A DNA stretch of 64,000 bases from Methyloversatilis discipulorum (lineage in GTDB: Bacteria; Armatimonadota; Fimbriimonadia; Fimbriimonadales; Fimbriimonadaceae), in the NCBI GenBank assembly GCA_943371575.1, contig CALRVI020000001.1, positions 103,953 to 167,952 on the forward strand. The letters are read 5' to 3'. Positions 32,577 through 61,336 of the stretch are shown one piece after another; the first letter of the stretch is position 1, and the number at the start of each line of letters is the position of its first letter. The notes below the pieces were generated by a model, which saw only the letters and a list, made by a program, of their open reading frames with translations, was not told where the DNA came from and did not search any database. The position numbers were made by a program, and so were the translations under genes.

Positions 32577-35381
32577 TTAGGAAACCGCCGCTTGAAGAGC
32601 CGCAATGCCTGCGGCAATCGCTTCATCGACCTTGCTGGCATCCCGACCGCCTGCCGTCGCGAAGTTCGGCGCGCCTCCTCCTCCGCCGCCCGTGACCTGA
32701 GCCACGGTTTTGACCAAATCCCCCGCCTTCGCCCCTGCCTTCAGAGCATCCGGTCCGACTTTGGCGACAAAAGTGACCTTCCCGCCCGCCACATTCACAA
32801 TGAGAGCGACCGCGGTCGGCTTCCCATCCACCAAACGGTCAGAAATTGCTTTCGCATCTGCCGGATCCGCATCTTCCAGCTTTTGAACAAAGAGGTTCAC
32901 TTTGCCGAGATTGTGTTCCTCAGCCGCGCTCGCTCCCGCGCCTTGCTGGGCGAGCTTTTCACGCTTCTTACGCTCCTCGCGCAGGGTGTCGAGAGTTTTT
33001 TCGATGCTGGCAATCAGCTCGTGGGGATTGGTTTTGAGCTTTGCGGAGGCAACATGAAGAGTCTCCAACTGCAGATTCAGCCAATCAACCGCCTTGGTAC
33101 CCGTGACCGCCGTGATCCGCCGCACTCCGCTCGCCGCGCTGCTTTCGTGGAGAATCTTGAAGAGCCCAATCTCGCCGGTGTTCGTAACGTGAATCCCCCC
33201 ACAAAGCTCCCGACTGAAGCTCGGCTGACCCGGATCCATGGTACCGACCTGCACCACGCGTACGCGATCTGCGTACTTTTCGCCGAACAGAGCCATCGCG
33301 CCCATCCTGCGGGCATCATCGAGCGGCACATCCTCGTAAGTGACCATGCCCTGCGCGGCAAGAATTTGCTCGGTCACCGTCTGCTCCACCGCCGCAATCT
33401 CTTCGCGTGACATGCCTGCGCCGTGGGTGAAGTCGAATCGCAGCACATCCGGCGCCACCATCGATCCCGCCTGAGTCACATGAGTGCCCAGATGCTGACG
33501 AAGCGCGGCATGCATGAGGTGAGTGGCCGTATGGTGCCGAGTGACCTCCTTGCGCCTCGTGCGATCCACAATCGCCTGAACCTTTTGGTTGAAGAACGCT
33601 TCTTGCAGTTTGGCTTTCGCCGCTTCGTCACCCAAGCCAACCGGATTGGACCCACTCATGACCTCGACGAGGTGGATGAAGACGCCGTCTTGCTTGGTGA
33701 CGTCAACCACTTTGAGCTCAAATCCCTCGCCCAGGATGCGCCCGGTATCGGAGACTTGGCCGCCGCTCTCCGCGTAAAACGGAGTCTGATCGAGTGCTAA
33801 AACGAACTCGCTGCTCGATTCGCCCCCTTCCACCATCGGGTGAGTTCCCGTAATCGTCGCTTCCGATTCCGTCGCGGCGTATCCCAAGAACTTCGTGGAG
33901 GTCGCCTTGTCATCGCCCTGGGTAAACACGGCAAGGATGCCGACCCCGCCATAGACCGTGTCCATGCCACTGCTTGCCCGGGATCGTTCCTGGGCTTCCG
34001 CCATGGCGGCGCGATATCCCTCGACGTCCACGCTGACTCCGGCTTCCGCGCAGAGTTCCTGGGTCACTTCGAGCGGGAACCCGAAGGTGTCGTAGAGCAT
34101 AAACGCCATATCCCCCGCCAGAGGCGTGGACTTGGCCTTGCTTCCGCCGCGCCAGGCCGCCAGCAGGTCTTCCAACCGCTCGCTCCCCGCTTCCAAAGTG
34201 CGCCGAAACTGCGCTTCCTCGTTGCGAAGAGTCTCTTCGATCACCGGACGACGATCGACTAACTCATGATAGTGCCCGCCAAAGTTCGCGACCACTGCCT
34301 CGACCAATTGGTGAAGAAAAGCATCTTCAAACTTGAGGACACGCACGCCCTTTAGCACCGCACGACGCAGAAGTCGGCGCAGAACGTATCCGCGTCCAGT
34401 ATTCGATGGAAGAATGCCATCCGCGATGCAGAAACACGCCGCGCGGAGGTGGTCGCCGATGATCCGCATCGCCCGCATCGACTCCTCATCCGACCCGTAG
34501 GCCGGAGCCCCCAAGCCTTCCATCGCCCGGAAAATCGGCTGAAACGCATCGGTGTCATACACACTGCGGAACCCGTTGAGCACCGCGACGGTGCGCTCGA
34601 TCCCCATGCCGGTGTCGATGCTCTTGAACGGCAGATCCGGCATCGCCTTCTTAGCGTATCCCTGATCCGGCCGCGCGGGATCCTTTAGATCGCCTTGCCA
34701 CTCGTATTGAATGAAGACATCGTTCCAAATCTCCAGCCACTTGCCCTCGGCTTCATCGCGCAGGTAGTGGTCTTTGGTGTAAGGACCGGTTGGCGGAGCC
34801 TCCGTGCCAGTCCAATAGAACATCTCACTATTCGGCCCGCACGGCCCCGGAGGGCCTTTGCTGAAAGCTCCGGCAGGCCAATAGTTGGTGTCTTCGTCCA
34901 TCCGGAAGATGCGCGATTCAGGATCAATCCCTGCCGCGCTGAGGAGTGCTGACCATTTGGTGAAAGCCTCATCGTCCTCGCTGAACACGGTGAAGGCCAG
35001 CCTCTTTGGATCAAGGCCCAGCCACTCCGGGCTCGTCAGGAACTCCCATGAGAACTCAATTGCTTGCCCCTTGAAGTAATCGCCAAAGCTGAAATTGCCC
35101 AGCATTTCGAAGAAGGTGAGGTGGCTGTCATCGCCCACTTCGTCGATATCCCCGGTGCGCAGGCACTTCTGGCTGGTGGTCAGCCGCTTGCTCGCCGGTT
35201 CGGCTACGCCTCGGAAGTAAGGCTTGAACTGCACCATCCCCGCGCCGTTGAAGAGGAGCGATTCATCCAGGCGTCCTGTGACATCGAACGGAATGAGCGA
35301 CCCACTCGGGTGCTCACTGTGTCCCTTCGAGATGAAGAAGTCAAGGTATTTCCGGCGCAGCTCCTGGACGGTCATGTGCAA
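32577..35381 (-). CDS. alaS: Alanine--tRNA ligase
   Basis: LRRKYLDFFISKGH, FTNAGM-like FNGAGMVQFKP, the editing-domain HTATHLMHAALR and CGGIHV motifs, and a C-terminal DHHA1-like GGGGGAPNFATAGG. Confidence 0.95.
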   Translation of the reverse strand: MHMTVQELRRKYLDFFISKGHSEHPSGSLIPFDVTGRLDESLLFNGAGMVQFKPYFRGVAEPASKRLTTSQKCLRTGDIDEVGDDSHLTFFEMLGNFSFGDYFKGQAIEFSWEFLTSPEWLGLDPKRLAFTVFSEDDEAFTKWSALLSAAGIDPESRIFRMDEDTNYWPAGAFSKGPPGPCGPNSEMFYWTGTEAPPTGPYTKDHYLRDEAEGKWLEIWNDVFIQYEWQGDLKDPARPDQGYAKKAMPDLPFKSIDTGMGIERTVAVLNGFRSVYDTDAFQPIFRAMEGLGAPAYGSDEESMRAMRIIGDHLRAACFCIADGILPSNTGRGYVLRRLLRRAVLKGVRVLKFEDAFLHQLVEAVVANFGGHYHELVDRRPVIEETLRNEEAQFRRTLEAGSERLEDLLAAWRGGSKAKSTPLAGDMAFMLYDTFGFPLEVTQELCAEAGVSVDVEGYRAAMAEAQERSRASSGMDTVYGGVGILAVFTQGDDKATSTKFLGYAATESEATITGTHPMVEGGESSSEFVLALDQTPFYAESGGQVSDTGRILGEGFELKVVDVTKQDGVFIHLVEVMSGSNPVGLGDEAAKAKLQEAFFNQKVQAIVDRTRRKEVTRHHTATHLMHAALRQHLGTHVTQAGSMVAPDVLRFDFTHGAGMSREEIAAVEQTVTEQILAAQGMVTYEDVPLDDARRMGAMALFGEKYADRVRVVQVGTMDPGQPSFSRELCGGIHVTNTGEIGLFKILHESSAASGVRRITAVTGTKAVDWLNLQLETLHVASAKLKTNPHELIASIEKTLDTLREERKKREKLAQQGAGASAAEEHNLGKVNLFVQKLEDADPADAKAISDRLVDGKPTAVALIVNVAGGKVTFVAKVGPDALKAGAKAGDLVKTVAQVTGGGGGGAPNFATAGGRDASKVDEAIAAGIAALQAAVS

Positions 35382-42008: not shown

Positions 42009-42647
42009 TCAGGCCCGATAGTCATCATCCTCTAAAAAAGGATGCCATCTTTGCTCCCATTCAGCCACAACTTCCTCCTTCTCCCGTACGTACAGTTCAA
42101 GTTCCGGCAACAGATCTGGTCGGCTAGCATCAATCAATGATCGCAACTGGCCAATCAGCGTGTCGTGTAACGACATTCGCCTCTCATAGTCCTTCTGTCG
42201 ATTCACTCGCTGTTCAAAATGCTTCGTCACCTGCCGACGATTCAGATGGAGTCGATCTACCATGTACTTTGCAGGTTCAGAAATTCCTTGCAGCTCGTGA
42301 TGCACCGTCCGCTCGAAATGATCGTCGTAATCTACAACGCACGGATCCAAGTAGCCTTTCCCATGTGTTAGTGGGTCGTCATGTGGCCAGTCATCACCTT
42401 TGAATGTGTTGCAAACACAGCACGCATAAAGCACATTAGAGTACTCGAGTGTAAGCTGCGGAAATTTGCTCTTAGGACGAAAATGATCAACCGCAAAGCC
42501 TCGGATGCCGCCCACCTCGTTCTCGTGGAGCCCACAGTAAACGCACTCAAAAGAAAAATCCAACCTCAGGTGAGGCTTAAAGTCCTTATACCGCCTTACT
42601 ACCCCGGGATCCCTATTCTTGACACGCAATGCCATTTCGCAACTCAC
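42009..42647 (-). CDS. HNH endonuclease (PtuB/TIGR02646-like)
   Basis: FECVYCGLHE...GFAVDHFRPKSKFP...NVLYACCVCNTFKGDDWP gives CxxC, the D-H catalytic pair and CxxCN-x2-K, a beta-beta-alpha-Me finger. The GTG start overlaps the upstream stop (GTGA). Confidence 0.8.
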   Translation of the reverse strand: MSCEMALRVKNRDPGVVRRYKDFKPHLRLDFSFECVYCGLHENEVGGIRGFAVDHFRPKSKFPQLTLEYSNVLYACCVCNTFKGDDWPHDDPLTHGKGYLDPCVVDYDDHFERTVHHELQGISEPAKYMVDRLHLNRRQVTKHFEQRVNRQKDYERRMSLHDTLIGQLRSLIDASRPDLLPELELYVREKEEVVAEWEQRWHPFLEDDDYRA

Positions 42648-43276
42648 CCCCGACTCTTGGTCTGCCTAATGAGATCTTCCAATCTAGCCAGTAAGGCCTC
42701 CTCGCGGGCAAGGAACTCTCGATCTTGGTCGGCTTTAAAGCCCAAGTAGGAGTCTGTGGGCCGTTGGATTTCCAGCCGAATCTGATCGAGGCGGAGTGAC
42801 TCACTCTCTCCGATATCACCTGAAATCTTCTTGTCAATTAAGACCGAAAGCTCAAGTAGCCTCTCCGATAACGAACCCTGATACTGCCCAACCCTTCTTT
42901 CAATTCTCATCATTAGCGACCTTGCGTGATCCCGTACCAGATCTTTCGGGAATACATTGTCAACCGAGCCGCTCTCCTCATGATCTTCAACGTCACCAAC
43001 GTGGCTAGTCAGCATAAACAGAGGCACGTCCTGCCTGATGCCTCGGAGGTAGCTGGCCAGGGCTGTACCGTCGTACTGCACAAGAGCATCAAGTCGATGA
43101 TCGATAATAAATCCTGCGACGTCACGATTGGCGATAAGCGCAGCCACTTCATCGATGCGTTGCGGTGGGTTCAGAATCTCGATAGAAAGCGACGAGGAAG
43201 CTTCACCTAGAAGAAACTGATACTCTTCAGCTTCGCTCGGCTGGTCATCGATGAGGAAAATAGTAGGCTGACTCAT
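42644..43276 (-). CDS. Stand-alone response-regulator receiver domain protein with coiled-coil C-terminal tail
   Basis: TIFLIDDQ (acidic pair D10/D11), GFIIDHRL (phospho-acceptor D59), PLFMLTSH (T90/S91) and NVFPKD (K111). The last ~90 aa are heptad-like and charged, with no DNA-binding or enzymatic output recognised. ATGA overlap with the kinase gene. Confidence 0.75.
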   Translation of the reverse strand: MSQPTIFLIDDQPSEAEEYQFLLGEASSSLSIEILNPPQRIDEVAALIANRDVAGFIIDHRLDALVQYDGTALASYLRGIRQDVPLFMLTSHVGDVEDHEESGSVDNVFPKDLVRDHARSLMMRIERRVGQYQGSLSERLLELSVLIDKKISGDIGESESLRLDQIRLEIQRPTDSYLGFKADQDREFLAREEALLARLEDLIRQTKSRG

Positions 43277-45462
43277 CGTTCAGGCACCCCAAGGGGAAAG
43301 AGGATCGTGAACTGCGCCCCCCCAAGATCCGAGACGCATTCAACTTCCACCTTTCCTTCGTAGTTTGTAAGTACTGACTTCACAATCGCTAAACCCATTC
43401 CGGTACCAACAGGCCGACCAGATGCATCAACACGTGTGCTGAACATAGGGTTGAAAATATCTGAAGCATTCACTTCAGGAATCCCGCGGCCTGAATCCGC
43501 AAACTGAATTTGAACGACGCCTTCCGGCAGGATTGCGGAGCGAACGCGTATCTGTTTTTGATCAGGTTCGGTGAACCGCAGAGCCTCTACTGCGTTGGTC
43601 AGTAAATTGACGACAATCGCCTCCAAGTCCATCTGGAAACCCAAAAAAGAAGGATTTGTTTCAGCTAAACCTTCTAGATCCACGCGAATCCCTTTGCTTT
43701 CAAAGAATTGCTGAAAAGAGCGAGTAAGATTCGTGATTATCTCATTTACGTTGAGTTTTTTGCGTTGTCGCCTATCTCTTTTCATACTTCCAAGCGCATA
43801 CTGGCCCCAGGCCTGAACTTTTTGCGCCTCAAACTCAATAACCTCAACGTGCCTGCGGAGGTCATCAAGCTTAGACCCAGAAGTGTCATCGATTGAGCGT
43901 CTGCTCATAGTCACACGGTTTAGGATACTTGTGACTGGTTGCGCCGTCTCGTGACCGAATGCCACCATCGCAATTCCAGTCGTAGCAAGGCCGTGAAGCA
44001 ATTGTTGCTCTGTTTGTACCGCACTTACTGTACCAGCCACGCCGGCGAGGTCGGCCGCCATTTCGTTCATCGACTTGAGAGCGTCGCGCAATTCAGTTAC
44101 AGGAGGGGTCTCGGGGAACAGAGATGGTGCGTCGGCACCCTCGATCGCACGCTCAAGTGTCTTCTTTACCGTTTCAATCTTGGGGCGGAATCGCTCTATA
44201 ACCTCATCTGGCTTTTGCCTAGGAATCTTGGCTGACTGTTGATGTTGTGTGACCCGATACCGTTCGAGCTTTTGAACCAAAAAGAGCATGAACTTGCGAA
44301 GATCATTAAGCGCGACATTGTCGACTAGTCCTTCGCGATTGGTCTGGTCGTATAGCGACATATTGTCCTCCTTAGTAATGTGCACCTCACCGACGATTTG
44401 ATTGCCCGCAATCCGGTAACCAGCCGAGCCAACTCCACCTGGGCTTCCTACGCGTCGTGCATTTAATGAAAGCCAATCCCCATTCTCACCAGGTTCGCCA
44501 TACGGGCGCACCCAAAATCCGTCTCGATAGACGCGTATACCTTGGAAGCGATCCAAGAACTGCACAACGTGCCTTTTTGTCATCATAGCATCGCTAATCT
44601 CGGTAGCCTGTCTAAGGTACAAGTGCAAGGTCGTCCTGATCGGGCCGCAAAGTGGGAACGTACCAGGCGCGACGTCTCCGAATGCATCACGCCACTCATC
44701 AGTGAATGACATAGAGTCGCTGGAGCGATTAGTGATTGTCGTTGTGATAGTGCCGCTGCTTGAAAGGTCAGCCTCCAAAGTCATTTCGGCAGCCTCTATC
44801 ATTGTGGTGTGAATAGGGCCCGAAAGGTCGTCGTAGGGGCAGTGAAGGCTTATAGAAAAATCTCGCTCGGTGTCGCTAAATGGTGGAACAAGTAGCGAGA
44901 GCTCATTTCTGAGTTTGACGAAGTCGACTCTCGTCCATTCATCTCGAAGTCCTGACAAAGTTATTGTCGTACCGCTCTCTCGGGAAGCACCTGCGTGTGA
45001 AGTCTGGATTGGGTGCGTAATGTCTCCTAAGTCTCCGCTTTCAACTTCATATTTAGACCATTCTATGAAAATTTCAGTTCGAGTCCCTTCTCCTTGATGC
45101 TGAGTCGCCAGTTTGGTATGTGTCGCTAGTCGATCCAACACAAGACGACCGATGCCCTTTTCCCCAACCTTTTTTCGTCCTTTTGTTGTCAGCGGCGAGC
45201 GCTGCTTATTTCCGGTGCTTATGACCAACCACTTTTCTTCGATGTCGCTCCTTGTCATTCCATCACCATTATCGGAAATGATCATCTCCATTTCAGTTTC
45301 GCCTGGAGCAAACATGACATCTACTTGTTGCGCGTCGGCATCGTAAGCGTTTTTGACCAGCTCCACCACTCCGGTCGCAGGGCTAGATATCGCGTCGCGA
45401 CCGAGCATTTGCATTGTTCTCGGCGAGACTCTGAATGATACGGAATCGGGGTTATTCGTCAA
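43273..45462 (-). CDS. Hybrid ATPase: N-terminal GHKL (HATPase_c_3, MORC/Hsp90/MutL-like) module + C-terminal histidine-kinase transmitter (H-box + HATPase_c)
   Basis: N-terminus: VVELVKNAYDADA, ISDNGDGM and GEKGIGRLV (Bergerat N, G1, G2 boxes). C-terminus: AFGHETAQPV (H-box, H504), VVNLLTNAVEAL (N), FADSGRGIP (G1), IFNPMFSTR (F) and GTGMGLAIVKS (G2). No TM segment. The TTG start overlaps the methyltransferase stop (TTGA). Confidence 0.8.
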   Translation of the reverse strand: MTNNPDSVSFRVSPRTMQMLGRDAISSPATGVVELVKNAYDADAQQVDVMFAPGETEMEMIISDNGDGMTRSDIEEKWLVISTGNKQRSPLTTKGRKKVGEKGIGRLVLDRLATHTKLATQHQGEGTRTEIFIEWSKYEVESGDLGDITHPIQTSHAGASRESGTTITLSGLRDEWTRVDFVKLRNELSLLVPPFSDTERDFSISLHCPYDDLSGPIHTTMIEAAEMTLEADLSSSGTITTTITNRSSDSMSFTDEWRDAFGDVAPGTFPLCGPIRTTLHLYLRQATEISDAMMTKRHVVQFLDRFQGIRVYRDGFWVRPYGEPGENGDWLSLNARRVGSPGGVGSAGYRIAGNQIVGEVHITKEDNMSLYDQTNREGLVDNVALNDLRKFMLFLVQKLERYRVTQHQQSAKIPRQKPDEVIERFRPKIETVKKTLERAIEGADAPSLFPETPPVTELRDALKSMNEMAADLAGVAGTVSAVQTEQQLLHGLATTGIAMVAFGHETAQPVTSILNRVTMSRRSIDDTSGSKLDDLRRHVEVIEFEAQKVQAWGQYALGSMKRDRRQRKKLNVNEIITNLTRSFQQFFESKGIRVDLEGLAETNPSFLGFQMDLEAIVVNLLTNAVEALRFTEPDQKQIRVRSAILPEGVVQIQFADSGRGIPEVNASDIFNPMFSTRVDASGRPVGTGMGLAIVKSVLTNYEGKVEVECVSDLGGAQFTILFPLGVPER

Positions 45463-46799
45463 GAACGCATCCCCCCTTCATCACGGTTCCACGGCAACTC
45501 CCTCACAGCACGTACCGTCAGGTGGCGGCATCGTATTCGTTGATCCATCCAGCGAGTCGATTCTTCAGATCGCAAATGCTCCAGCAACAGCCTGCTGATT
45601 TTGCCACCTTTCGCTTGCAGAATGAGCAGGTGATTGTCGACAAAAACCGGCTCTGTTCCCAGCACGAGAGTTGCGCTAAGCCTAGGCGATTCACCTGGCC
45701 TGCTGGTTCGCCGGATGGCCACAAATGGCGGGCAGAACGCTCGGCCAGAATTAGTGAGAAGTGGTGCTTGGGCCGCATCGAAGACCTCAGAGCCTGCAAG
45801 AATCCTGGCGTTGATGAATCTGCGTGTAGCACCTTGAGCCAGGTCTCGGTGTGGAACCACGGTACCGACACTAACTTCGTACTGGTCACACAGGGTGCCC
45901 ATAGCACTAGCCTCGACCCAGCGGAATGTTTTGCCCTTACCTCTGGTTCCTGAGAGGAGAAACACGTCGATGTCCGTATGCTCATCGAACTGGCCCATTC
46001 TGACTACTTGGTCGACTCTTAGCATCTCCTCTAGCTCCGATCTCCACAGTTGGTACCGACTTCCTGACCGTAACACATCGGGGAGTATGGCGCGAACTCT
46101 TGCACCGGTTGGAAGTTGCGAGATCGAGCGCAGAGCGAATAACGCCGCAGAGCTCACTTTTCCGCGAGCAAAGGTAGTGCCCCTTGGCGCAATGGTCGAT
46201 GTGTATGGGGGATTGAGTAGCATTAGGCTGCAATCTGGCGGGCAAGACTGCTGAGCGCTATCGGCACAACTGATGTTGGGGAAGTATTCAGATGGGTTGG
46301 CGAACATCTTTGACTTAGTTCTTTGCTGCGCGAGGAGTACCAAACGTGCTCTTGCTGCTCTGACAAAAAGATCTTCACGATCAAATCCATGAAGTATCTC
46401 ACCCCATTCCACAAGTGTTTCGTGTAGATCGCTAGAGACCGGAAGCCGCGACGCAGCAGCGATGAGAAGGTCGCCTGCCCCACACGTAGGGTCGTAAACA
46501 CGCTTGAACTGATCCGCGGGAATGCGGGATGTCACACTTTTCCGAAGCTTTGAGCTGGTGAAGAACGCCCCAATACTCCGCCGTGTCGTGATGGACACGG
46601 CTTCCCGGAGCCTCTCAGAGACCAGCCCGTTAAGATTCGCCTGGATCATCCGACGTCGCTCCAGGCACGAATTGCCTTCAGTGCCAGTCGCTAGGTTCTC
46701 GATCAGCTCAACGTGCCCAAGAAATGGCAGTAAACCAGATTCATCTTCGAGAGAATACGCAGAACCCAAAAGAGCACCCAGTGCCCGGCGGTCAATCAC
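45459..46799 (-). CDS. Gamma-class N6-adenine DNA methyltransferase (Eco57I/TaqI-like) with C-terminal target-recognition region
   Basis: IGAFFTS (motif X, GxFxTP-like), VYDPTCGAGDLLIAA (motif I, AdoMet) and LMLLNPPY (motif IV, NPPY). GTG start with AGAGGAA about 8 nt upstream. Confidence 0.85.
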   Translation of the reverse strand: MIDRRALGALLGSAYSLEDESGLLPFLGHVELIENLATGTEGNSCLERRRMIQANLNGLVSERLREAVSITTRRSIGAFFTSSKLRKSVTSRIPADQFKRVYDPTCGAGDLLIAAASRLPVSSDLHETLVEWGEILHGFDREDLFVRAARARLVLLAQQRTKSKMFANPSEYFPNISCADSAQQSCPPDCSLMLLNPPYTSTIAPRGTTFARGKVSSAALFALRSISQLPTGARVRAILPDVLRSGSRYQLWRSELEEMLRVDQVVRMGQFDEHTDIDVFLLSGTRGKGKTFRWVEASAMGTLCDQYEVSVGTVVPHRDLAQGATRRFINARILAGSEVFDAAQAPLLTNSGRAFCPPFVAIRRTSRPGESPRLSATLVLGTEPVFVDNHLLILQAKGGKISRLLLEHLRSEESTRWMDQRIRCRHLTVRAVRELPWNRDEGGMRS

Positions 46800-46997
46800 T
46801 TTTGAATTCCTCTAATCATGCGGGCACCTAAGTAAGCAGGACCTCAGCTTGGGACGTTGCCAACCGATTTGGCACTTCAGATTTCGTATCCCAGGGTTCA
46901 TCGCACCTGCCCCAGCCCACCAAGTAAAGCAAACTCAGTCGTCCAATCACCGCTGATTTCACCGCGACTCGGAGTGTACCCACCCTGTTTGACGTAC

Positions 46998-47024
46998 GGA
47001 AAGGGTGCGGTCGAAATCGCACCC
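46998..47024 (-). terminator. Candidate intrinsic terminator after the beta-helix gene
   Basis: The minus strand reads GGGTGCG-ATTTCGAC-CGCACCC followed by TTTCC, 22 nt downstream of the stop at 47047. It separates the phage-like module from the methyltransferase operon. Confidence 0.4.
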
Positions 47025-47046: not shown

Positions 47047-48144
47047 CTATTGCGATGAAACATCGCTGAGAACCTTAATTCGCATGATTGGATACCAACC
47101 TTCTCTGAACTCCTCGATGCTGAGCGGCGGCCTGATTCGGTACCCGTGGGCGACGTCGGCGAGGATCCCGCGATTCCCACTCGCGTAGTTCGGGCCGAGC
47201 TGGCCGACGAATTCCATCTGGTTCCAGCCGCCCTGGTTGCCGGACGCCACGTTGTCCTGCATGAGCGACCCTTTTGAGTGCTCCAACCCGATCCCGTAGT
47301 CACCAAACCCCGTCGCCGTGTTGCCCTTGATGAGGGCCGCGATCACTCCGTATGCGGAGAGACCAGAGAGCCGCCCAGGCCCGACGAATGTGCAGTTGAT
47401 CACCCGTAAGCCCTTGATGAGGGCATCCTCGCGCCATGTCGCCCAGCGATACGTCTCGCCGCGGCGGAATACCTGCTGGTCGCCTTCCCAGCGCGGGACG
47501 ATCTCCAGGGTCACCGAATCCTCGGTATTTCCCACCACTCGGAACCGGGAGCGATCAGGGTCTAAGCCCGGGCCCCAGATATCCCAGGTATTGCGAGCCG
47601 CGAGCCGCAAGGGGAACGTCGCCTCAAGTGGCGCGCGGATCTGCAGCGTGATCCGGCCTGTACCGTCACCGGCAGCCGTCCGGCTTGCCGTGATCGGATT
47701 GATGTGCCCGAGGCGATTCGTGCCACCCTTCTCGGCCTTCGGGTCATACCAGAACCCATTCTCCGGGCCGTCTTTGAACTCCCAGGGATGACCTGGAACC
47801 ACAGCGAAGAGCTCCCACTGATTGCCCGCGCCGATGAACTGCGTGTTTTCAACCGTGAGCCCGTCCGTTCGGATCGCGAGGAGCTGATGAAGAAGGCCTC
47901 CCGTGAAGGCTGAGTCCTCGATTCTGCTTCCGTGGGCCTGGCGAAGCACGACGCGCCCATCCCCTTCCAGCTTTAACGTGACGCCATCGATCCTCACCGG
48001 AGCCTCGAAGACGAGGTCGGCCCGCACCGTGATCACCCGATCCTTGAGGATCACGGGAGACGTGATGACGCGCTCATTTGCTACCGTCGCCGGCACGGAA
48101 GTCGCCCCGATCGCCAGGGCCGCAAGAAGGTTCGCAAGAACCAT
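47047..48144 (-). CDS. Right-handed parallel beta-helix (pectate-lyase-fold) protein, candidate tail-associated depolymerase
   Basis: Start at MVLANLLAALAIGATSV (one-base stop/start overlap, TGATG, with the upstream gene). Successive short repeats such as VINCTFVGPG, IKGNTATGFGDYGIGLEHS, MQDNVASGNQGG and ASGNRGILADV are typical PbH1 coils. Confidence 0.55.
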   Translation of the reverse strand: MVLANLLAALAIGATSVPATVANERVITSPVILKDRVITVRADLVFEAPVRIDGVTLKLEGDGRVVLRQAHGSRIEDSAFTGGLLHQLLAIRTDGLTVENTQFIGAGNQWELFAVVPGHPWEFKDGPENGFWYDPKAEKGGTNRLGHINPITASRTAAGDGTGRITLQIRAPLEATFPLRLAARNTWDIWGPGLDPDRSRFRVVGNTEDSVTLEIVPRWEGDQQVFRRGETYRWATWREDALIKGLRVINCTFVGPGRLSGLSAYGVIAALIKGNTATGFGDYGIGLEHSKGSLMQDNVASGNQGGWNQMEFVGQLGPNYASGNRGILADVAHGYRIRPPLSIEEFREGWYPIMRIKVLSDVSSQ

Positions 48145-49409
48145 CAGAGGTACCCCAGGTTCCTTGCTTGCTTCGTCGTGGTGAGGTTCGCTAGGCACAC
48201 CTCCGCCATTTCGATGATCCCCGTGCTCGATGTCCCCGCGTTCAGCATATTGGTCATGTAGAGCTCAAAGAGCAGAGAGGTCGTGTTCGCGGGCACCTTG
48301 TAGGCGTAGGCCATCGTTCGCCACTCGTTTCCAGAGTCGATCACCCCGATCCAAGGAGAGATGAAGGATCCAGTTGCACCGATCGGGCGGATGTTGTTCA
48401 CGAAGGTCGATTCCTGCCCGCTCACCAGGCAGTTTCGCATTCGGAACTTCATGGAGAAGAGCATCCAGTCCCCAACGGCGGCGGATGCCCCGATTGCGAG
48501 CGAAGTACTGAAAATGACGAGGGCCTTGCCACCGGTTTTGGTGACCTGCTCCGCGCTCCCTTTGAGCCCAACGGTGTCCTGAGCAAGCGTGGCGCGAGTG
48601 AATGTTCCGACCGGAGTGTCATACCCATAGGTTCCGTAGCTTCCGGGCGCGAGAGCGAGCGGCACCCCCGTCTTGGTGCCCTGGGTGCCCATCAGGGTCA
48701 GGTCATGCTCGCGAGGCATCCAGCTTCGGACGAAACTATCAAAGACCAGGCCGAGGGCCACATATCCGCGGGGGTTCGGATGAACACCGTCCGTGGTCAA
48801 GGTTCCTTGTTGGCCATCCATAACCGCGAACAACCCGGTAACCAGCGGCCAGCCGGTCTCAGAGGACAGCTGAGCAAGCCAGGCATTATGCAGAAGTACT
48901 TCGTTCCGGTCTTTGCCCGATGGGATCATGAGCTCGCAGAGGATCGGCACGACGCCCGCCTGAGCGATGTTGTTGAGATCCGCTCGGATCCTGTTTCGCA
49001 GATCACGTCGCTGCGCCGCTGTAAGCGGAGATCCCGAAGACGGCATGTCGTTGTGGCCAAGCCAGTAGAAGGCTGCGTCCGGCTGGTCGTGAAGGAAATC
49101 GAATCGGTAAGCCGTGGACTCGAATCCTCCCACCGAGAGCCCGCTATAGCCAAAGCTCGATGCGGGGGTGAGCAGGGCGGGCATGTTGCTTGATCCGCTC
49201 ACGTTGAGGATGCGTGTGCTGGACTGGAGGCAGATTTGGGAGAGCATCCCGCCGATAAATCGCCACGTGGTCGATGGGTTCGAGCCAGCTGTGATGGAGT
49301 CACCGACCATCGTGACCCGAACTGGCCGGAGCGCATTGATTGAAGAAAGTCGCTCCGCCCCACTCGGCCAGCCCCGAACACCTTCTACTCTCCCGATCGC
49401 GACGCTCAC
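48144..49409 (-). CDS. SGNH/GDSL hydrolase domain protein with C-terminal beta-rich domain (tail-associated esterase candidate)
   Basis: VTMVGDSITAGSN (block I, GDS) and TDGVHPNPRGY (block V, DxxH). The C-terminal ~190 aa have no motif. Confidence 0.65.
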   Translation of the reverse strand: MSVAIGRVEGVRGWPSGAERLSSINALRPVRVTMVGDSITAGSNPSTTWRFIGGMLSQICLQSSTRILNVSGSSNMPALLTPASSFGYSGLSVGGFESTAYRFDFLHDQPDAAFYWLGHNDMPSSGSPLTAAQRRDLRNRIRADLNNIAQAGVVPILCELMIPSGKDRNEVLLHNAWLAQLSSETGWPLVTGLFAVMDGQQGTLTTDGVHPNPRGYVALGLVFDSFVRSWMPREHDLTLMGTQGTKTGVPLALAPGSYGTYGYDTPVGTFTRATLAQDTVGLKGSAEQVTKTGGKALVIFSTSLAIGASAAVGDWMLFSMKFRMRNCLVSGQESTFVNNIRPIGATGSFISPWIGVIDSGNEWRTMAYAYKVPANTTSLLFELYMTNMLNAGTSSTGIIEMAEVCLANLTTTKQARNLGYL

Positions 49410-49723
49410 GAGGCCACCACTCCCAGAGCGATGTTGCGGGTACCCATCGCATGGTAAGGAGCCATCGCAATGGCATCGACGATGTCCGGCTCTTCACCAA
49501 GGCTGTTCACCGGCGTAATGATCAGATCCACGGGAGCTGTGCTGATAACCGCCCCAACCGCATCGGCAGGTGGTTCAAGAGATGTCCAGCCCGCCGGAGA
49601 AATAGCGACCTGGAAGAAGCCCGCATGAAGGCCGCTCGAATCCAGGAAAACACCGGAGACGAGCCCCGATCCGCTTCGCGCGGCGAGCCTGAAAGACTGG
49701 ATGCCGGGAGTGTAGTGGTTCAC
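49406..49723 (-). CDS. Hypothetical small protein in the tail-fibre region
   Basis: 105-aa ORF with a 4-nt overlap to the downstream SGNH gene, co-oriented. Confidence 0.4.
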   Translation of the reverse strand: MNHYTPGIQSFRLAARSGSGLVSGVFLDSSGLHAGFFQVAISPAGWTSLEPPADAVGAVISTAPVDLIITPVNSLGEEPDIVDAIAMAPYHAMGTRNIALGVVAS

Positions 49724-49729
49724 ATGGGT

Positions 49730-52700
49730 TCAGACCCGTTTCCAGGTCAATCCATCATCAAGGCTTCGCCACTCAGCGGGATCGGTTTCGCCCTCTGGGA
49801 TGGCTGAAAGGATCCACGTATCGGTGGAGTCATTCGCCGGGAAGACGTGGAACGTGCCGTCCTCGACCTTGATGTCGGCCGTGGTCTGATCCTTGGCAAA
49901 GAAGGCCGCGCCGGGGGATGCTTGACCTGGCCCCTGGCGACGGATGCGGATCTTGCCAGGGCCTGAGGTGCCGCTGTCGTAGACGAGGCAGGCCAGCACA
50001 CGCCAGCCGCTTCCGCTTTGATTGCCTGTGGGGAATGCTCCAGCCATGATGGTCACCGGTTCAGACCAGCTCCGGCCATCATCGAGAGACTTCGCCTGCA
50101 TCACCGAGCCAGCTCGCTCCCACAGAGCCCAGACCGGAGAAGTGCTGCCGAGGCCGTGAAGTGTTGGCCTCCTGTCATCCGGCAGGCCGATTACCACGTC
50201 TTCAGCCCAAGGCAGTCGCGAGAGGTGATCGCGTGAGCGGGTGATCCGGACCCCTGTCTCCACCGACCAAGCCCGGTAGAAGTGACCCAGGCGGTTGATG
50301 AAGTTCCAGATCCAGCCGCCGGCTTCTGCCACTGCGCCGACCCAGAACGCGCCGCGCCAGGGCCGCATTCGGAACCACTCTTTCCCGCCCCAGTGAGCCG
50401 CCCACAGATAGCCTTCGGATCCCGTGGTGGCGATGGTGTGCGCTCCAACATGCCATCCCGCGGGAGCGGTTACCGGCGTCAGGCTGTTCACCCCTCCCCC
50501 GGCGACATCGCGTAGCTCAAGCGATTTCGGCGCTATGATCGGCATCTGGTTTCCGAGGTGCGAGTAAGACCTCTGCTCAAGTGCCCCGATCGGGAGCCAG
50601 CTCGCCACCGAGAGCCGCCGCCCTTCCGGGAAGCAAGCGATTGGTGGCACTGCCGAACGAAACGTGTTCGAATAGATCCCGATCGGGCCGACCGAGCTCG
50701 GAGCAAATCCGGAGATCGTCGTGAGCTGCTTGTCCGGATCTCGCCAGAGGTGATCGATGATTGTCCACTCTTCGCCTGGGACGAACTCATCCCCCGCTCG
50801 CGTGGTGAGATCGGTGAGAGCTGACCGCCCGCGCAGGAACACGTTCTCCCAGGCCCACAGATCGCCAATGGTGGTCGCCTGGCTCGGACCGCGTGTCTGG
50901 GGCACCGTCAGAGGGATGTCCAGCAGGTAATCGTAAAACGAGAGGCAGCCATACCGGACTCCAGGGCCATCATCGAAGAGGATCGCGGCCAGGCCGCCCG
51001 TCTCGTGATAGACCTTCGCGGTGTTCCAGGGAGCCATGTGGAACACGGGATGATGGATGATCGCGGGGAGGCCCGTATCGATCCTGGTGAATTCCCAGCG
51101 GATCTTCGTCGGGGTCCGCGAGGGCATGAGACCAAACGAACTGATCCGGCGCTCATCGAGGGAAGCGGCAAAGCTCTCGTCATCCGGCTCGATGGACACA
51201 TAGGTGTCGACCAGCTCGCCCTGGCCAAAGTCGGCGAGGGCATCGGTTGCCCACTCGCTCGCGAGACCAGCAGGGATCCGGTGTGTCCCGGCAGTGGATG
51301 CGATGAGAACCTTGGTGCCATCCGCGCCCACCGCGAACACGGAACATGCCGAGATGTTCGTGCCATCCCAGCCGATCTCGATCCGGTCGGCAAGCGTCGG
51401 GGTCATGTAGGGGAAAGCAGTGAAGCTCGCCATCTCGAACTCCATTTCATCGGCATCAACGAAGATGTTCGTAGCACCCACGAGGCCCGTGCCAGATCCG
51501 AACGTGAACCGAGGAGTCGAGTCTTCCGTGGTCTCGAAGCTGTCTGGGTGATCTGCGCGATCAAGGATGCCGAAGCGATTAATGCCCCACCAGCAAGGAA
51601 GGCCGAGAATATACGTGGCGAGCCCCGTGACCCCGTTCTGGTCGATCGGCTCGGCCACCACATTGATCCGGTGCTTAGTGTCCTGCCCAGAAGGGAGAGC
51701 CGGATGAGTGACGTGTTGCTGGCGAGCTGCGTACCAGTACGCGATCGGGGAATCCCCTCCCATGAGTTTCCAGCGCGAGCTGCTTGCGGCCGAGTCGGGC
51801 GGAAACCAGAGACCATAGCTCCAGTGAGGATTCACCCAGGTGTTTACAAACGGCGCAGGATATTCCGCGTGATCGAGGGCAGGAGAGGGCGAGCCGGGTG
51901 CCTGCAGGCTCCAGACAACTCCCCACCCGCGCTGACCAAAGACGGAGGGGGTGCCATAGAGCCGGTTGTAGCTCGGCGAGGCTTGCGCGTAGACCGTCCG
52001 GTCAAGGAGGTCATTCAGGCCCGCGCCGCCTGTCCTTGCGAGCAGCTCGCTCTTCGTTGGATAGACCGTCGTGGTGGCGGTTTCCGTGGTGTTGGTTCCC
52101 CCACCGGCGCACAGATCCTCCTCGATATAATCCTGCCGCTCAAACCCATAGCCATGCGCGCCCCATCGTGAGATCAGGCCCTCGTAATCGGGGTTCATGG
52201 CCTCGACGCTCGCCGGCAAATTCGGCAGGATCCAGACCGGAGACGTGCTGAATTCTTGCTGCAGGAGTGATCCCGTGTTCGTTTCCTTGTACTCGCTCGT
52301 GACCGTGACCGACCAGGTGTTCGACCCCGAGGCGTAGGGGCTGGCTGGAGCAATTTCGATGGGCAGAGCCGTAGGTGATCCACCCTTGGGGGTGAAGCGC
52401 CATCCGCCCGAGACGTTGGAGATGGCATGAGTCTCCGAGCCTCCGGGACCTGGCTCAAAACAGCCATTGACGACAATCAGAGGGTCAGCCGCGGCGCCGC
52501 CCGTGAGGTACGGCGGAATCCCGATCGCTGGGATGGATGCGGGCACTCCGGTCATTGTTCCGGAGACATCGAGCGGAACCCCTCTTTGCCACTCGAGCAC
52601 ACCGTTAACCCACCACTGCACGTTAGTTGCCGTGATCCTCAGCGTTCCCGAAGCATTCATCCAGAGCTTCAGATCGATGAGCTTCACGACCTGGCTGACG

Positions 52701-53068
52701 ACCGAGATCCCGGGATACGTGCGAGTTTGCACGGCGCCGAGGATCGGGGCCTCGATGGTCGCAGTCGCTTCGACGAGTCCACCCATAGCCCCGTAGCCGT
52801 GGAGCCTGATCCCATTCGCCGTGAGAAGGTAGTCCGGCGTGAACATCGATTGGATCTGGCCCGAGGCGGCGGCGGTGGAGGTGAATCCGCCGAATGTCCA
52901 CACCGACGAGGACGTGGGATCCACGTTGAGTTGCATCTCCCAGACGTCGTACTCCGCGAGCAGTCCACCAAAGGGCGCGGGCTCGCCGCTAGAGACGAGC
53001 TCCGCCGAGAACCACCCCAGCGGGCTGAGGTTCCGGTCAAACCAAAGCTCAGGCCCGAAGAAGTTCAT
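49730..53068 (-). CDS. Large distal-tail/host-recognition protein with C-terminal BNR/Asp-box repeats (sialidase-like propeller)
   Basis: 1112 aa. C-terminal Asp-boxes SLDDGRSWSEP and SLDDGLTWKRV (S-x-D-x-G-x-x-W). Lies in the tail-tip gene block. Confidence 0.55.
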   Translation of the reverse strand: MNFFGPELWFDRNLSPLGWFSAELVSSGEPAPFGGLLAEYDVWEMQLNVDPTSSSVWTFGGFTSTAAASGQIQSMFTPDYLLTANGIRLHGYGAMGGLVEATATIEAPILGAVQTRTYPGISVVSQVVKLIDLKLWMNASGTLRITATNVQWWVNGVLEWQRGVPLDVSGTMTGVPASIPAIGIPPYLTGGAAADPLIVVNGCFEPGPGGSETHAISNVSGGWRFTPKGGSPTALPIEIAPASPYASGSNTWSVTVTSEYKETNTGSLLQQEFSTSPVWILPNLPASVEAMNPDYEGLISRWGAHGYGFERQDYIEEDLCAGGGTNTTETATTTVYPTKSELLARTGGAGLNDLLDRTVYAQASPSYNRLYGTPSVFGQRGWGVVWSLQAPGSPSPALDHAEYPAPFVNTWVNPHWSYGLWFPPDSAASSSRWKLMGGDSPIAYWYAARQQHVTHPALPSGQDTKHRINVVAEPIDQNGVTGLATYILGLPCWWGINRFGILDRADHPDSFETTEDSTPRFTFGSGTGLVGATNIFVDADEMEFEMASFTAFPYMTPTLADRIEIGWDGTNISACSVFAVGADGTKVLIASTAGTHRIPAGLASEWATDALADFGQGELVDTYVSIEPDDESFAASLDERRISSFGLMPSRTPTKIRWEFTRIDTGLPAIIHHPVFHMAPWNTAKVYHETGGLAAILFDDGPGVRYGCLSFYDYLLDIPLTVPQTRGPSQATTIGDLWAWENVFLRGRSALTDLTTRAGDEFVPGEEWTIIDHLWRDPDKQLTTISGFAPSSVGPIGIYSNTFRSAVPPIACFPEGRRLSVASWLPIGALEQRSYSHLGNQMPIIAPKSLELRDVAGGGVNSLTPVTAPAGWHVGAHTIATTGSEGYLWAAHWGGKEWFRMRPWRGAFWVGAVAEAGGWIWNFINRLGHFYRAWSVETGVRITRSRDHLSRLPWAEDVVIGLPDDRRPTLHGLGSTSPVWALWERAGSVMQAKSLDDGRSWSEPVTIMAGAFPTGNQSGSGWRVLACLVYDSGTSGPGKIRIRRQGPGQASPGAAFFAKDQTTADIKVEDGTFHVFPANDSTDTWILSAIPEGETDPAEWRSLDDGLTWKRV

Positions 53069-54018
53069 TACGCCGAGTCAAGGAAGAAGGCAGGCATCCC
53101 GCCTGTCCACGCCGCCTGGGCAGCCAAGGCAGGAGCGGGATCCGGGAGGGCTCCAGCTGTGACGGCAAACTGGAACTGGTACCCACCAAGCTTGGTCGAA
53201 AGAGATCCCGGAAGAGCACTTGGCGCAGACTGGATCTGACCAGTTGCCGCCGCGATGGCGCCCCCGAACGCCGCAGGGCCAGCGACGGTACCTGTCGCGT
53301 TCACACTGCAGGCGAGGAAGTACGTCTCATCCCTTGCCAGGGCCACGGAGAGCCCCGTCGCCGCTCCCCAGGCGTTGGCAACCGTGGTGATGGCGGTCTC
53401 TGGCATGAGGCGAGCAAGATCGGACAGGCGATACAGCGCGACCCGGAAGACGTTGGTGGTTGCACCGACGCCGTACCAGCGAATGCTTGCCACCGTGAGA
53501 TCAAAGGGCAGGCGGAACATCGAGCAACGAGCAACGCTGACCGTGACGTTGGTTGGCGTCGGCGCGATGTTGCCGGCGTCCTGCAGGAGCGCAAGCATGG
53601 TGTCCGGGTTGCCATCACCATAGGCGGCGGCGAGCTGGCCAAACCACGGCCTGGCTTGCACTTCCCCACCGCTCTGGGTCTGGAACCCAACGGCATCGAT
53701 GTACCGAAGGTGCTGGCCCGGGCTGAGCCACCGCTTTTCGATCTCGACCGTCGCCGTGCCGTCCGAGTGCTCAATGGTGATCATCACGCCGGTGGTTGCG
53801 CTCTTATTCCGGATGAGCAGCCCCTTGACGTTTCGCGCGGTGGAAGCACCTGGCGAGGGGATCACGGTCGTGGAGCTTGCTGTGGTGATCTGGGTGTTAT
53901 CCTGCCCCGGCGTGACCGTGCTTCCGGACAAGTCCACCCAGGAGGCGTGAACATCCACGGGCACCGCCGCCGAGGTGATGACGCGCAGGAGCGCGGACGT
54001 TGATGCGAGGAGGATCAC
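53068..54018 (-). CDS. Hypothetical tail-associated protein
   Basis: 316-aa ORF, co-oriented, with a 1-nt stop/start overlap to the downstream gene. Ala/Thr/Gly-rich and beta-like. Confidence 0.45.
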   Translation of the reverse strand: MILLASTSALLRVITSAAVPVDVHASWVDLSGSTVTPGQDNTQITTASSTTVIPSPGASTARNVKGLLIRNKSATTGVMITIEHSDGTATVEIEKRWLSPGQHLRYIDAVGFQTQSGGEVQARPWFGQLAAAYGDGNPDTMLALLQDAGNIAPTPTNVTVSVARCSMFRLPFDLTVASIRWYGVGATTNVFRVALYRLSDLARLMPETAITTVANAWGAATGLSVALARDETYFLACSVNATGTVAGPAAFGGAIAAATGQIQSAPSALPGSLSTKLGGYQFQFAVTAGALPDPAPALAAQAAWTGGMPAFFLDSA

Positions 54019-54033
54019 ACTGGTTTAGACCAG

Positions 54034-54261
54034 CTACGGCACATTCACATCTGGAGTAAAGAGCCACTCCCCGAACGTTGGCGATCCCGGATCCGTGTCC
54101 TGAGCCTCCGCGATCGGGATCTCCGGTAAGGCCATGACCCTCGCGATGGCGCCCTCCATGTTCCGGTCGGTGGCCAGGACGTTCTCCTGGTAGGCGCGGG
54201 TGCCTCGACCTTGAGCCACCATGTTCTTCATTCCGGCTTTCTGTTGCTCGATTGCTCTCAT
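54034..54261 (-). CDS. Small hypothetical protein
   Basis: Start at MRAIEQQKAGMKNMV gives an ATGA overlap with the upstream 899-aa gene. The longer ORF to 54336 is rejected. Confidence 0.35.
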   Translation of the reverse strand: MRAIEQQKAGMKNMVAQGRGTRAYQENVLATDRNMEGAIARVMALPEIPIAEAQDTDPGSPTFGEWLFTPDVNVP

Positions 54262-56957: not shown

Positions 56958-56995
56958 CGGGGGTCTGCTGGTTCAGACCTTTTTCCGCAAATTGG

Positions 56996-57415
56996 TTATC
57001 GAACGGTGAAGCTCGCGCCGCAGAAACTGCATGCGTACACGCCTGGGGTGAAACTGCTTACCCAGGAGTCAATGAGAGCAGCCGTGATCACGAATCCAAG
57101 TGATCCGAAGTAGCCCAACCCGGTTCCTTGATTCCCTTGAAATGCCAGATTGAATGACCCACACTGAGGGCAACCGAATCCGTGGCCAGTGTTGCATAGA
57201 TATCGGGGGTCTACCAACACGACCGGATGCTGCCGAGCACGCGCTTGAACCCACGGAGGATCTAGTAATTGTTGCGGAATGGGTGACGCAGGAGGTGGCA
57301 CCACAGGTGGCGGACCGGAGTTGAACCTTGTTCGGAATCTATGACCGCAAAATGCGCAGATCGCATCCCCAATCGGACTTTGCTGAGAGCATGTCGGGCA
57401 GATTTTCTTTTGCAC
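56996..57415 (-). CDS. Double zinc-ribbon protein (moron candidate)
   Basis: CPTCSQQSPIGDAICAFCGHRF and CPQCGSFNL...CSFCGASF give two CxxC...CxxC pairs. GTG at 57415 is proposed because the longer ORF overlaps the upstream gene. AT-richer patch. Confidence 0.4.
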   Translation of the reverse strand: MQKKICPTCSQQSPIGDAICAFCGHRFRTRFNSGPPPVVPPPASPIPQQLLDPPWVQARARQHPVVLVDPRYLCNTGHGFGCPQCGSFNLAFQGNQGTGLGYFGSLGFVITAALIDSWVSSFTPGVYACSFCGASFTVR

Positions 57416-57422
57416 TGCGCAC

Positions 57423-58220
57423 CTACTCGATTTGCCGTCTCTGGAGATCATAGAGCCAGACTTCGCGGATATTTTCGTAGTCGTGAGACACGTATACCCA
57501 TCCATCTTTAAGCTTGAATCCTGCGATTCTGTATCCCTCTTGCTCCTCGGTTCCAGCATAGTCGTCAACTGGCTCACCAAGCTCTGCCACAAGCGTATTG
57601 TAAGGCACTGATGGCTTTGCAATGTTCCGGGCCAGTGACATCGTGGGCTGTTCTGGCCGGGTTGGTGCCGCATCGGGCCTGCGATAGACTTCAAGCCCCT
57701 GAGATCCCTGGAGGGCCATCGTTTTCCCATCGAAGCTAACGAAGAAATCTTGCTCTGACGACCCGACCCCTTTTGTCCGGGCAAGCTCAAATAGGGTCAG
57801 AACCTTGCCGTCGAACTTGTAGCGGGTGGTTCGGGTCACTTTCCCGTAGGAAATCAGACAAGATCCATCTTCATTGAACGTAAGCATCCCAAACTTCTTG
57901 TCCTCGACCCACGGCCCAAGGATTCGGCGTTCTTCGAGCTTTGGCACCGCAACCCGAAACCAGCCTATCGCGAACGCGACAGCAAACAGGGCGATCACGT
58001 GCCATGCCTTAAATCGAGAACCGCTCACCGGCGAAGCGGCAGGTGCACCAACGTGCGGAACAGCTTGCGCTGGCGGAACAGGAACCTGGTGAATCAGCCC
58101 GGGCGGTGTCGGTGACGTGAATTGATGCTGACACTGAGTACACACCTGCGCAGAAATCGCGCTCGGTGACCCACAAACCGGGCAAAACTTGCTCACCCCA
58201 TAAGACGTTGGATTGCTCAT
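57423..58220 (-). CDS. Zinc-ribbon + single-TM + extracytoplasmic domain protein (moron candidate)
   Basis: CPVCGSPSAISAQVCTQCQHQF, a Pro-rich linker, the TM helix WHVIALFAVAFAIGWF, then a ~170-aa domain. Confidence 0.55.
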   Translation of the reverse strand: MSNPTSYGVSKFCPVCGSPSAISAQVCTQCQHQFTSPTPPGLIHQVPVPPAQAVPHVGAPAASPVSGSRFKAWHVIALFAVAFAIGWFRVAVPKLEERRILGPWVEDKKFGMLTFNEDGSCLISYGKVTRTTRYKFDGKVLTLFELARTKGVGSSEQDFFVSFDGKTMALQGSQGLEVYRRPDAAPTRPEQPTMSLARNIAKPSVPYNTLVAELGEPVDDYAGTEEQEGYRIAGFKLKDGWVYVSHDYENIREVWLYDLQRRQIE

Positions 58221-58267
58221 GTCCTAGGCTGATTGTAACCCAACGACCACTATTCTGCAATAGGGTT

Positions 58268-59557: not shown

Positions 59558-59776
59558 CTATCTTAGTCCTCGCCGCTCGGCTTCTTCCCGCTCCCGTTCG
59601 TCTCTAAAGTCCGCCAGCCGCTGGCAGTCATCTACCCAGTCATCGCCAAGGGGAGCAATCTCAACCCCGAGGCCTCTTCCGATCTCGACCAGCGCACCCG
59701 CGAACCAGGAGACAATATCGGGGTGCGCTTGGTTTAGCCGATTTGCGGAGTCGAGGCCCCGGAGCCCGCTAAAGGG
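59558..59776 (-). CDS. -1 frame extension giving the GT-like frameshift fusion product
   Basis: The -1 frame is open from the heptamer to TAG at 59560..59558, directly abutting the tape-measure ATG. It reads PFSGLRGLDSANRLNQAHPDIVSWFAGALVEIGRGLGVEIAPLGDDWVDDCQRLADFRDEREREEAERRGLR and has no own start codon. Confidence 0.55.
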   Translation of the reverse strand, partial: PFSGLRGLDSANRLNQAHPDIVSWFAGALVEIGRGLGVEIAPLGDDWVDDCQRLADFRDEREREEAERRGLR

Positions 59777-61332: not shown

Positions 61333-61336
61333 AAGA

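Follow-up and report, generated by a model that had tools for sequence, protein, structure and literature searches.

The locus described here raises the question of whether four adjoining genes for a DNA methyltransferase, a sensor kinase, a stand-alone receiver and an HNH nuclease form a phage defence system of their own kind or belong to one that has already been named, and of how their products may act together. The genes lie in a stretch of 64,000 nucleotides, called the window in the following, from an assembly deposited as Methyloversatilis discipulorum (GCA_943371575.1, contig CALRVI020000001.1, positions 103,953 to 167,952 of the forward strand), for which the lineage given in GTDB is Armatimonadota, Fimbriimonadaceae. 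Our answer, to which we assign a probability of roughly 0.8, is that the locus belongs to the Ambrosia family, with four genes and without the regulator gene abrR, that it looks horizontally acquired and that it closes a prophage-like block. An initial annotation, made from the nucleotide sequence before any database search, had placed four co-oriented open reading frames (ORFs) on the minus strand at 42009-46799, and our ORF calls returned all of them at these coordinates:

45459..46799, minus strand: AbrA-like N6-adenine DNA methyltransferase (446 amino acids, GTG start)
43273..45462, minus strand: AbrB-like sensor kinase (729 amino acids, TTG start)
42644..43276, minus strand: AbrC-like stand-alone receiver (210 amino acids, ATG start)
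42009..42647, minus strand: AbrD-like, PtuB-type HNH endonuclease (212 amino acids from GTG 42647, or 208 amino acids from ATG 42635)

The four genes are one tightly coupled unit.

Ambrosia was described in September 2025 by van den Berg et al. (bioRxiv 10.1101/2025.09.30.679545). It comprises the HipB-like XRE protein AbrR, the N6-adenine methyltransferase AbrA, the kinase/HATPase protein AbrB, the receiver (REC) protein AbrC and the HNH protein AbrD. The system defends Pseudomonas aeruginosa PAO1 against Pbunavirus and Mesyanzhinovviridae phages, and point mutants in each predicted domain lose defence, among them the GHKL asparagine, D60A in AbrC, the HNH histidine and the methyltransferase motif (bioRxiv 10.1101/2025.09.30.679545). 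We took the Ambrosia sequences from Table S1 of the preprint and compared them with the window proteins by BLASTP, with the following results:

AbrB and the window kinase: 38% identity, E = 8e-72, window residues 10-381 (first 399 amino acids of AbrB)
AbrA and the window methyltransferase: 35% identity, E = 2e-57, 347 aligned columns (first 399 amino acids of AbrA)
AbrC and the window receiver: 27% identity, E = 3e-16
AbrD and the window HNH protein: 30% identity, E = 1e-17

AbrA and the window methyltransferase share the blocks ILPDVLRSG-RY-WRS and PPFVA-RRTS. Moreover, the gene order methyltransferase-kinase-receiver-HNH is identical, and the proteins of the window and of Ambrosia measure 446 and 448, 729 and 747, 210 and 209, and 212 and 213 amino acids, respectively. 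Residues mutated in the preprint are kept in the window proteins, where N38 corresponds to N40 of AbrB, D59 to D60 of AbrC and H55 to H60 of AbrD. Both loci therefore encode the same set, namely an N6-adenine methyltransferase, a kinase with HATPase_c_3 and HATPase_c domains, a stand-alone receiver and a PtuB/TIGR02646-like HNH protein. The initial annotation had known of no named system with this combination. This claim of novelty does not hold, since the gene set belongs to a described system that was given the name Ambrosia in 2025, and since an in-silico study of 2021 (PMC8011034) had described GHKL-histidine kinases with a receiver beside restriction-modification (R-M) genes. Its second proposal was a single conserved defence unit that joins R-M-like enzymes to a kinase-receiver pair, and here the results agree with it: the cassette is conserved and the homologue protects P. 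aeruginosa.

The locus also differs from the published system. AbrR is reported as required for Ambrosia (bioRxiv 10.1101/2025.09.30.679545), whereas we found no ORF for a helix-turn-helix (HTH) protein in the 247-bp gap upstream of the operon, and none between positions 36001 and 56000 of the window with an XRE profile. This broader profile was used because a search seeded on one HTH protein failed to generalise. Ambrosia has been reported from Gammaproteobacteria only (van den Berg et al.); the closest relatives of the window kinase are a metagenome protein (51%) and proteins from metagenome-assembled genomes (MAGs) of Chloroflexota (~43%). The winged HTH reported for AbrC was not reproduced either, as P. 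aeruginosa AbrC gave a weak Response_reg match only and no HTH family by Pfam at E<=1. This domain may be a claim about the prototype and not a defining feature of the family. Detection of Ambrosia by its authors relies on AbrA to AbrD only, with hidden Markov model cut-offs of 100, 500, 150 and 200 bits for AbrA, AbrB, AbrC and AbrD (bioRxiv 10.1101/2025.09.30.679545), and the AbrC- and AbrD-like proteins of the window would probably score under these cut-offs. Weighing against the assignment are the modest identity of precisely these two proteins, the restriction of the AbrA and AbrB comparisons to the first 399 residues, and the absence of a regulator that the prototype is said to need.

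The motifs listed by the initial annotation were all recovered, that is, X, I and NPPY in the methyltransferase, two Bergerat modules and an H-box in the kinase, the catalytic residues of the receiver and the HNH finger. Pfam matched N6_Mtase, HATPase_c_3, HATPase_c and HNH, PADLOC agreed, and the receiver stayed below the Pfam threshold. In the methyltransferase the motifs read FFT79, DPTCGAG103 and NPPY196; N6_Mtase was matched at 4.8e-5, just above the gathering score, and the PADLOC MTase_I/II models align to residues 70-286. The kinase is cytoplasmic and lacks a hydrophobic segment. It starts with a MORC/Hsp90-like GHKL ATPase and transducer (residues ~1-380), continues into a long coiled coil (383-559), and ends with a DHp region carrying H504-E505 and a CA domain (~568-729). 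Pfam placed HATPase_c_3 at 29-165 (4.6e-19) and HATPase_c at 611-724 (2.6e-25), and the motifs are E34/N38, D64xGxG, G100EKGIGR, H504-E505, an N-box at 619, DSGRG656 and GTGMGL686. Across 21 full-length homologues (alignment A1) the residues E34, N38, D64, G100-R106, H504, E505, N619 and G686-L691 are invariant. An AlphaFold2 (AF2) model of the kinase (pLDDT 77.8) resembled in Foldseek the ATPase modules of MORC2/3/4, SMCHD1 and Hsp90 in its N-terminal half and the DHp-CA cores of YF1, CpxA, HK853 and ZraS in its C-terminal half. In addition, the N-terminal GHKL part matched NF050001 (1e-24) and PADLOC REase_II models over residues 10-188.

The receiver carries D10, D11, D59, T90 and K111. As a single sequence it scores under the Pfam threshold, and its family profile matches solved REC domains at 3.5e-6. 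D59 and P85 are invariant in the alignments A2 and A3, D10 and T90 are invariant in A3 and nearly so in A2, and K111 is nearly invariant in A3. In the AF2 model (pLDDT 79.6) a REC fold (1-117) is followed by long helices at 118-152, 157-170 and 173-209, and the Foldseek matches were REC domains and REC-plus-coiled-coil proteins only. No HTH or winged HTH was found in this protein by Pfam (E<=1), by a profile search against PDB sequences or by Foldseek on the AF2 model, and the tail has no beta wing. Its net charge is about neutral, which is uninformative on DNA binding. The HNH protein shows C35xxC, D54-H55, C76xxC and N80 and has a helical C-terminal part. It was matched by Pfam HNH (1.9e-6), by PADLOC PtuB models (to 2.6e-20) and by TIGR02646 (8e-9).

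How far the gene set is conserved was addressed in a neighbourhood survey, in which ORFs were called in 84 loci and compared with iterated profiles of the four window proteins. The kinase hybrid family gave 961 matches at E<=1e-5, with relatives in at least 577 species-representative genomes. A search with the receiver as a single sequence yielded 3 proteins only; a profile of locus-derived receivers reached further. The receiver gene lies directly 3' of the kinase gene in 78 of the 84 loci. An HNH gene comes next in ~41 of the 84, and at least 36 of these ~41 have a methyltransferase gene, either upstream as in the window or downstream; most HNH-type loci lacking it lie at contig edges. The four-gene neighbourhood that the initial annotation had put up for examination is accordingly conserved and occurs beyond this genome. 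Loci of the survey come from Chloroflexota, Paceibacterota, TM6, Gemmatimonadota, Bacteroidota, Planctomycetota, Verrucomicrobiota, several proteobacterial classes, Lachnospiraceae and Gastranaerophilales. An XRE gene directly upstream was recognised by the XRE profile at 9 of the ~41 HNH-type loci and, separately, on plasmid P2 of Deinococcus gobiensis, which encodes an XRE-type HTH protein, an Eco57I-type methyltransferase, the kinase, a hypothetical protein that is the receiver, and an HNH protein. On a plasmid of Bacteroides finegoldii the order kinase-receiver-HNH-methyltransferase adjoins integrase and toxin-antitoxin genes.

The HNH gene is not the only partner of the pair. In 15 loci (L030, L033-L035, L037, L038, L043, L053, L057, L059, L064, L068, L071, L073 and L077) it is replaced by a gene for a metallo-beta-lactamase (MBL)-fold protein of ~330-350 amino acids that overlaps the receiver stop. 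These proteins resemble the defence-associated PADLOC entries RTasMBL (DRT), LmuA (Lamassu), PDC-M48B and Avs1a. Eight of the 15 loci, mostly cyanobacterial, are without a methyltransferase gene. A two-gene variant, in which the kinase is followed only by a receiver of 350-403 amino acids, was seen at 17 loci (L028, L031, L042, L045, L047, L050, L051, L056, L061, L066, L070, L072, L076, L080, L081, L083 and L084; also L088:6156-7226) and on an Enterobacter plasmid. The long receivers end in a domain of ~250 amino acids with the conserved motifs YxxPP, GD, LTPSCD, FLPG and GRxGxPDLD, for which no match was found in Pfam, PADLOC or PDB sequences and which may be a receiver-fused effector. One kinase-receiver pair combined with an HNH protein, an MBL protein or a receiver-fused domain fits a sensor cassette that drives interchangeable effectors. 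A candidate fusion at L054, with a short receiver and a long HNH protein, was considered as a "Rosetta stone" and rejected, as the extra part of the HNH protein lies at its C-terminus and shows no relationship to the tail of the receiver. Two observations were made beside these groups. Nitrosopumilus loci (L018:7001-10238 and L020:3889-7136) hold an archaeal kinase hybrid, a short receiver (185-193 amino acids) and then an unannotated protein of ~200 amino acids. In a Chloroflexia MAG (L075:6986-9201) the kinase is split over three ORFs and the receiver is shortened, which points to a decayed copy or to assembly errors.

Other known systems share single features with the locus. Detocs (Millman 2022 and Rousset 2023) reportedly consists of the kinase DtcA, the buffer receiver DtcB and the receiver-effector DtcC. 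It resembles the window locus as a two-component phosphorelay in phage defence, and the two-gene relatives with a long receiver are similar to DtcC in their logic. The window locus, in contrast, has a single receiver, a MORC-like GHKL sensor, a separate HNH protein and a methyltransferase, and neither a buffer receiver nor a nucleoside-phosphorylase effector. No Dtc model was among the matches of the window proteins in PADLOC 2.0.0, which presumably holds such models. The HNH effector of Septu PtuB and retron Ec78 (TIGR02646, NF041761) is of the same type as the window protein, which nevertheless scores under the NCBIfam cut-offs and is accompanied neither by a PtuA ABC-type ATPase nor by a retron. 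A PtuA gene is not present at the locus, the sole match to a PtuA model (PDLC00292) being made by the HNH protein itself. For MADS, NF047738 (MAD2 methyltransferase) reached 23 bits against a cut-off of 720. Assignments to Detocs, Septu, MADS, BREX PglX and type IIG enzymes were rejected for weak or partial PADLOC/NCBIfam similarity.

Closer in architecture are the kinases described by Bellieny-Rabelo et al. in 2021, which are soluble, combine HATPase_c_3, HEF_HK and HATPase_c, are paired with Response_reg_2 and are enriched beside type II R-M genes (PMC8011034). The family was linked mainly to C5 methylases and Vsr, in silico only, and a descent from paraMORCs was proposed (PMC8011034). Similar to the window locus, it joins a soluble HATPase_c_3-DHp-HATPase_c kinase to a stand-alone receiver-like protein near methylases and nucleases, including HNH variants. 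Nevertheless, PF19191 (HEF_HK) and PF19192 (Response_reg_2) had no match in the window proteins (E<=1), nor at E<=0.01 in 11 other family members from 9 loci. HEF_HK is therefore a sister family of the same architecture and not the family of the window. Prokaryotic MORC and paraMORC GHKL ATPases occur in R-M contexts (Iyer et al. 2008, PMC2292703). The ATPase head of the window kinase is similar to these proteins and to the GHKL restriction enzymes BbrUII and HgiDII, and its fold resembles MORC2/3/4, whereas its C-terminal half is a histidine-kinase core and not a nuclease.

How the four proteins may work together can be proposed from these features and from the homologue. The AbrB-like protein would sense infection through its MORC-like GHKL ATPase and transducer, probably by clamping DNA or a phage-induced state as an ATP-driven dimer, as its fold suggests. 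The signal would then travel along the coiled coil to the DHp-CA core, where the strictly conserved H-box and the N and G boxes point to autophosphorylation of H504. From H504 the phosphoryl group would pass to D59 of the AbrC-like receiver; in the homologue D60A loses defence. Finally, the phosphorylated receiver would activate the output pair of PtuB-type HNH protein and N6-adenine methyltransferase, both of which are catalytically required in the homologue. We give about an even chance to a switch at the protein level in this last step, in which the helical tail modelled for the receiver would act on nuclease or methylase. It is favoured over transcription because no DNA-binding domain could be recognised in the receiver and the locus has no XRE regulator.

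The authors of the Ambrosia study proposed a different last step. In their model the genes for methyltransferase and HNH protein are silent until infection, when the phosphorylated receiver binds DNA and induces them, and DNA that bears the mark of the methyltransferase is cut by the HNH protein in a type IV-like manner. Reporters in which mNeonGreen replaced abrA or abrD were barely expressed before infection and strongly during infection, and transcriptional control was favoured by the authors, who reported a winged HTH in AbrC (bioRxiv 10.1101/2025.09.30.679545). The loss of defence in D60A is consistent with this model, as is the finding that AbrA methylation does not shield phages. Both the reporter induction and the reported winged HTH speak against a protein-level switch. 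Against it also counts that the argument from a tail without DNA-binding domain is drawn from a single AF2 model, with pLDDT 48-94 in the tail, and from searches that gave no match. However, no HTH or winged HTH was detected in the window receiver or AbrC by the searches given above, the regulator genes themselves belong to the one tightly coupled operon of four genes, and the induction seen in the homologue could stem from AbrR, which is absent here. For the window locus, transcriptional activation by the receiver is therefore in our judgement less likely than not, and the same holds for the authors' model as a whole.

Less probable still is the arrangement put forward in the initial annotation, in which constitutive methylation protects the host and the HNH protein cuts unmethylated invading DNA only after phosphotransfer, as in an R-M system with a safety catch. 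The company of methyltransferase and HNH genes at most HNH-type loci would agree with it, as would the intact NPPY and motif I and the lack of a detected DNA-binding domain in the receiver. Phages propagated on AbrA-expressing cells, however, remain fully sensitive, and the catalytic mutant of the methyltransferase is defence-negative (bioRxiv 10.1101/2025.09.30.679545). Together with the MBL-type relatives that have no methyltransferase, these phage data disfavour the claim that methylation protects self DNA. Methylation more likely serves the attack or labels the target than keeps up a permanent protective mark on the host. The notion that an ordinary two-component pair came to lie by chance beside an unrelated methylase and nuclease can be dismissed, since, common as cytoplasmic kinase-receiver pairs are and weak as the Pfam matches of receiver and methyltransferase were, the survey contradicts it with a gene set and order that recur in many phyla, with genes overlapping or nearly abutting, and the homologous cluster requires all its genes for defence.

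Returning to the protein-level switch, a wider form of it would make the MORC-like GHKL-kinase and the tailed receiver a sensor cassette across bacteria, candidate phyla radiation lineages and archaea, which drives interchangeable effectors (an HNH protein with a methyltransferase, an MBL nuclease or the receiver-fused domain) directly at the protein level, with the nuclease licensed by aspartyl phosphorylation of a receiver without DNA-binding domain and not by a transcriptional switch as proposed for Ambrosia. We offer this generalisation tentatively and would put its odds somewhat below even.

The gene junctions and the signals for expression were considered as well. The initial annotation had read all three junctions as 4-nucleotide stop/start overlaps, and TTGA (45459-45462), ATGA (43273-43276) and GTGA (42644-42647) are indeed present. 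The third is uncertain as an overlap: GTG 42647 abuts its G-run, whereas ATG 42635 has a better, normal Shine-Dalgarno spacing and was chosen for the HNH gene by an independent gene call (208 amino acids), so that receiver and HNH genes may be separated by a gap of 8 nucleotides. For the kinase, the TTG start (729 amino acids) is favoured over the ATG used by NCBI (P0001, 713 amino acids, starting at M17), because homologues align across the first 16 residues with a nearly invariant F10 (alignment A1) and the gene call of an independent assembly also gives 729 amino acids. An exact look-up of the 713-residue form returned no protein. Upstream of the operon we noted the following signals:

46808..46812, minus strand: Shine-Dalgarno sequence GAGGA, 8 nucleotides 5' of the methyltransferase GTG, from reading of the sequence
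47003..47024, minus strand: GC-rich hairpin GGGTGCG / CGCACCC with a 7-bp stem and an 8-nucleotide loop, past the stop of the upstream gene

The operon thus has the ribosome-binding site of its own that had been claimed for it. An upstream hairpin terminator had been claimed too, and the hairpin exists, a 57-nucleotide segment folding at -20.9 kcal/mol (ViennaRNA); its role as a terminator was not supported, as the T tract behind it is weak (TTTCC only) and a terminator scan called none at this position. Three imperfect 13-nucleotide direct repeats (minus strand, GAAWTCnnnnGTG-like, 75-76 nucleotides apart) occupy 46797-46960 of the window and extend from 5' of the methyltransferase gene into its start codon; they are probably due to chance.

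The surroundings bear on the origin of the locus. The operon has a GC content of 0.515 compared with 0.599 and 0.619 in its flanks, so the AT-richer patch was rightly noted, and the locus looks horizontally acquired. Its position had been described as between a phage tail-fibre block and an RHS toxin locus. The downstream neighbour of 1522 amino acids carries RHS repeats (PF05593, 1e-74), and the upstream block is phage-related; a tail-fibre function was not recovered, PHROGs giving no match for the putative tail-fibre genes or the other large ORFs tested between 47047 and 64000, and we consider it plausible. Among the upstream genes there are a weak beta-helix match and a GDSL esterase match. 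A protein of 1112 amino acids had no match in the domain search. Along 79% of its length it is 43.5% identical to a protein encoded by Sc-Yong805-2, a temperate Synechococcus phage, where the homologous gene is the last in a series of large genes. A match to a major head protein family was obtained for the ORF at 63309-63968. The operon is located at the end of this prophage-like block. As a separate observation, the minus-strand genes at 47047-64000 form a prophage-like run, and the 1112-residue protein within it is akin to Synechococcus and Microcystis phage proteins. On the other side, a 934-residue ORF at 32577-35381 (minus strand) matches phrog_28604, of unknown function, over almost its full length (E = 8.7e-175); as it lies beyond the RHS gene, the RHS gene and the defence operon may both be bordered by phage-related genes.

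Taken for what it most probably is, the locus represents a further, divergent copy of a system that has already been named and for which a homologue has a phage-defence phenotype. The Ambrosia-type core occurs here without an XRE regulator gene nearby and would work in this form. Moreover, the family extends far past the Gammaproteobacteria, and other effectors are found in combination with its kinase-receiver pair. Should the receiver truly be devoid of a DNA-binding domain, the transcriptional model in the preprint would have to be revised, and the system would exemplify the gating of a nuclease by two-component phosphorylation.

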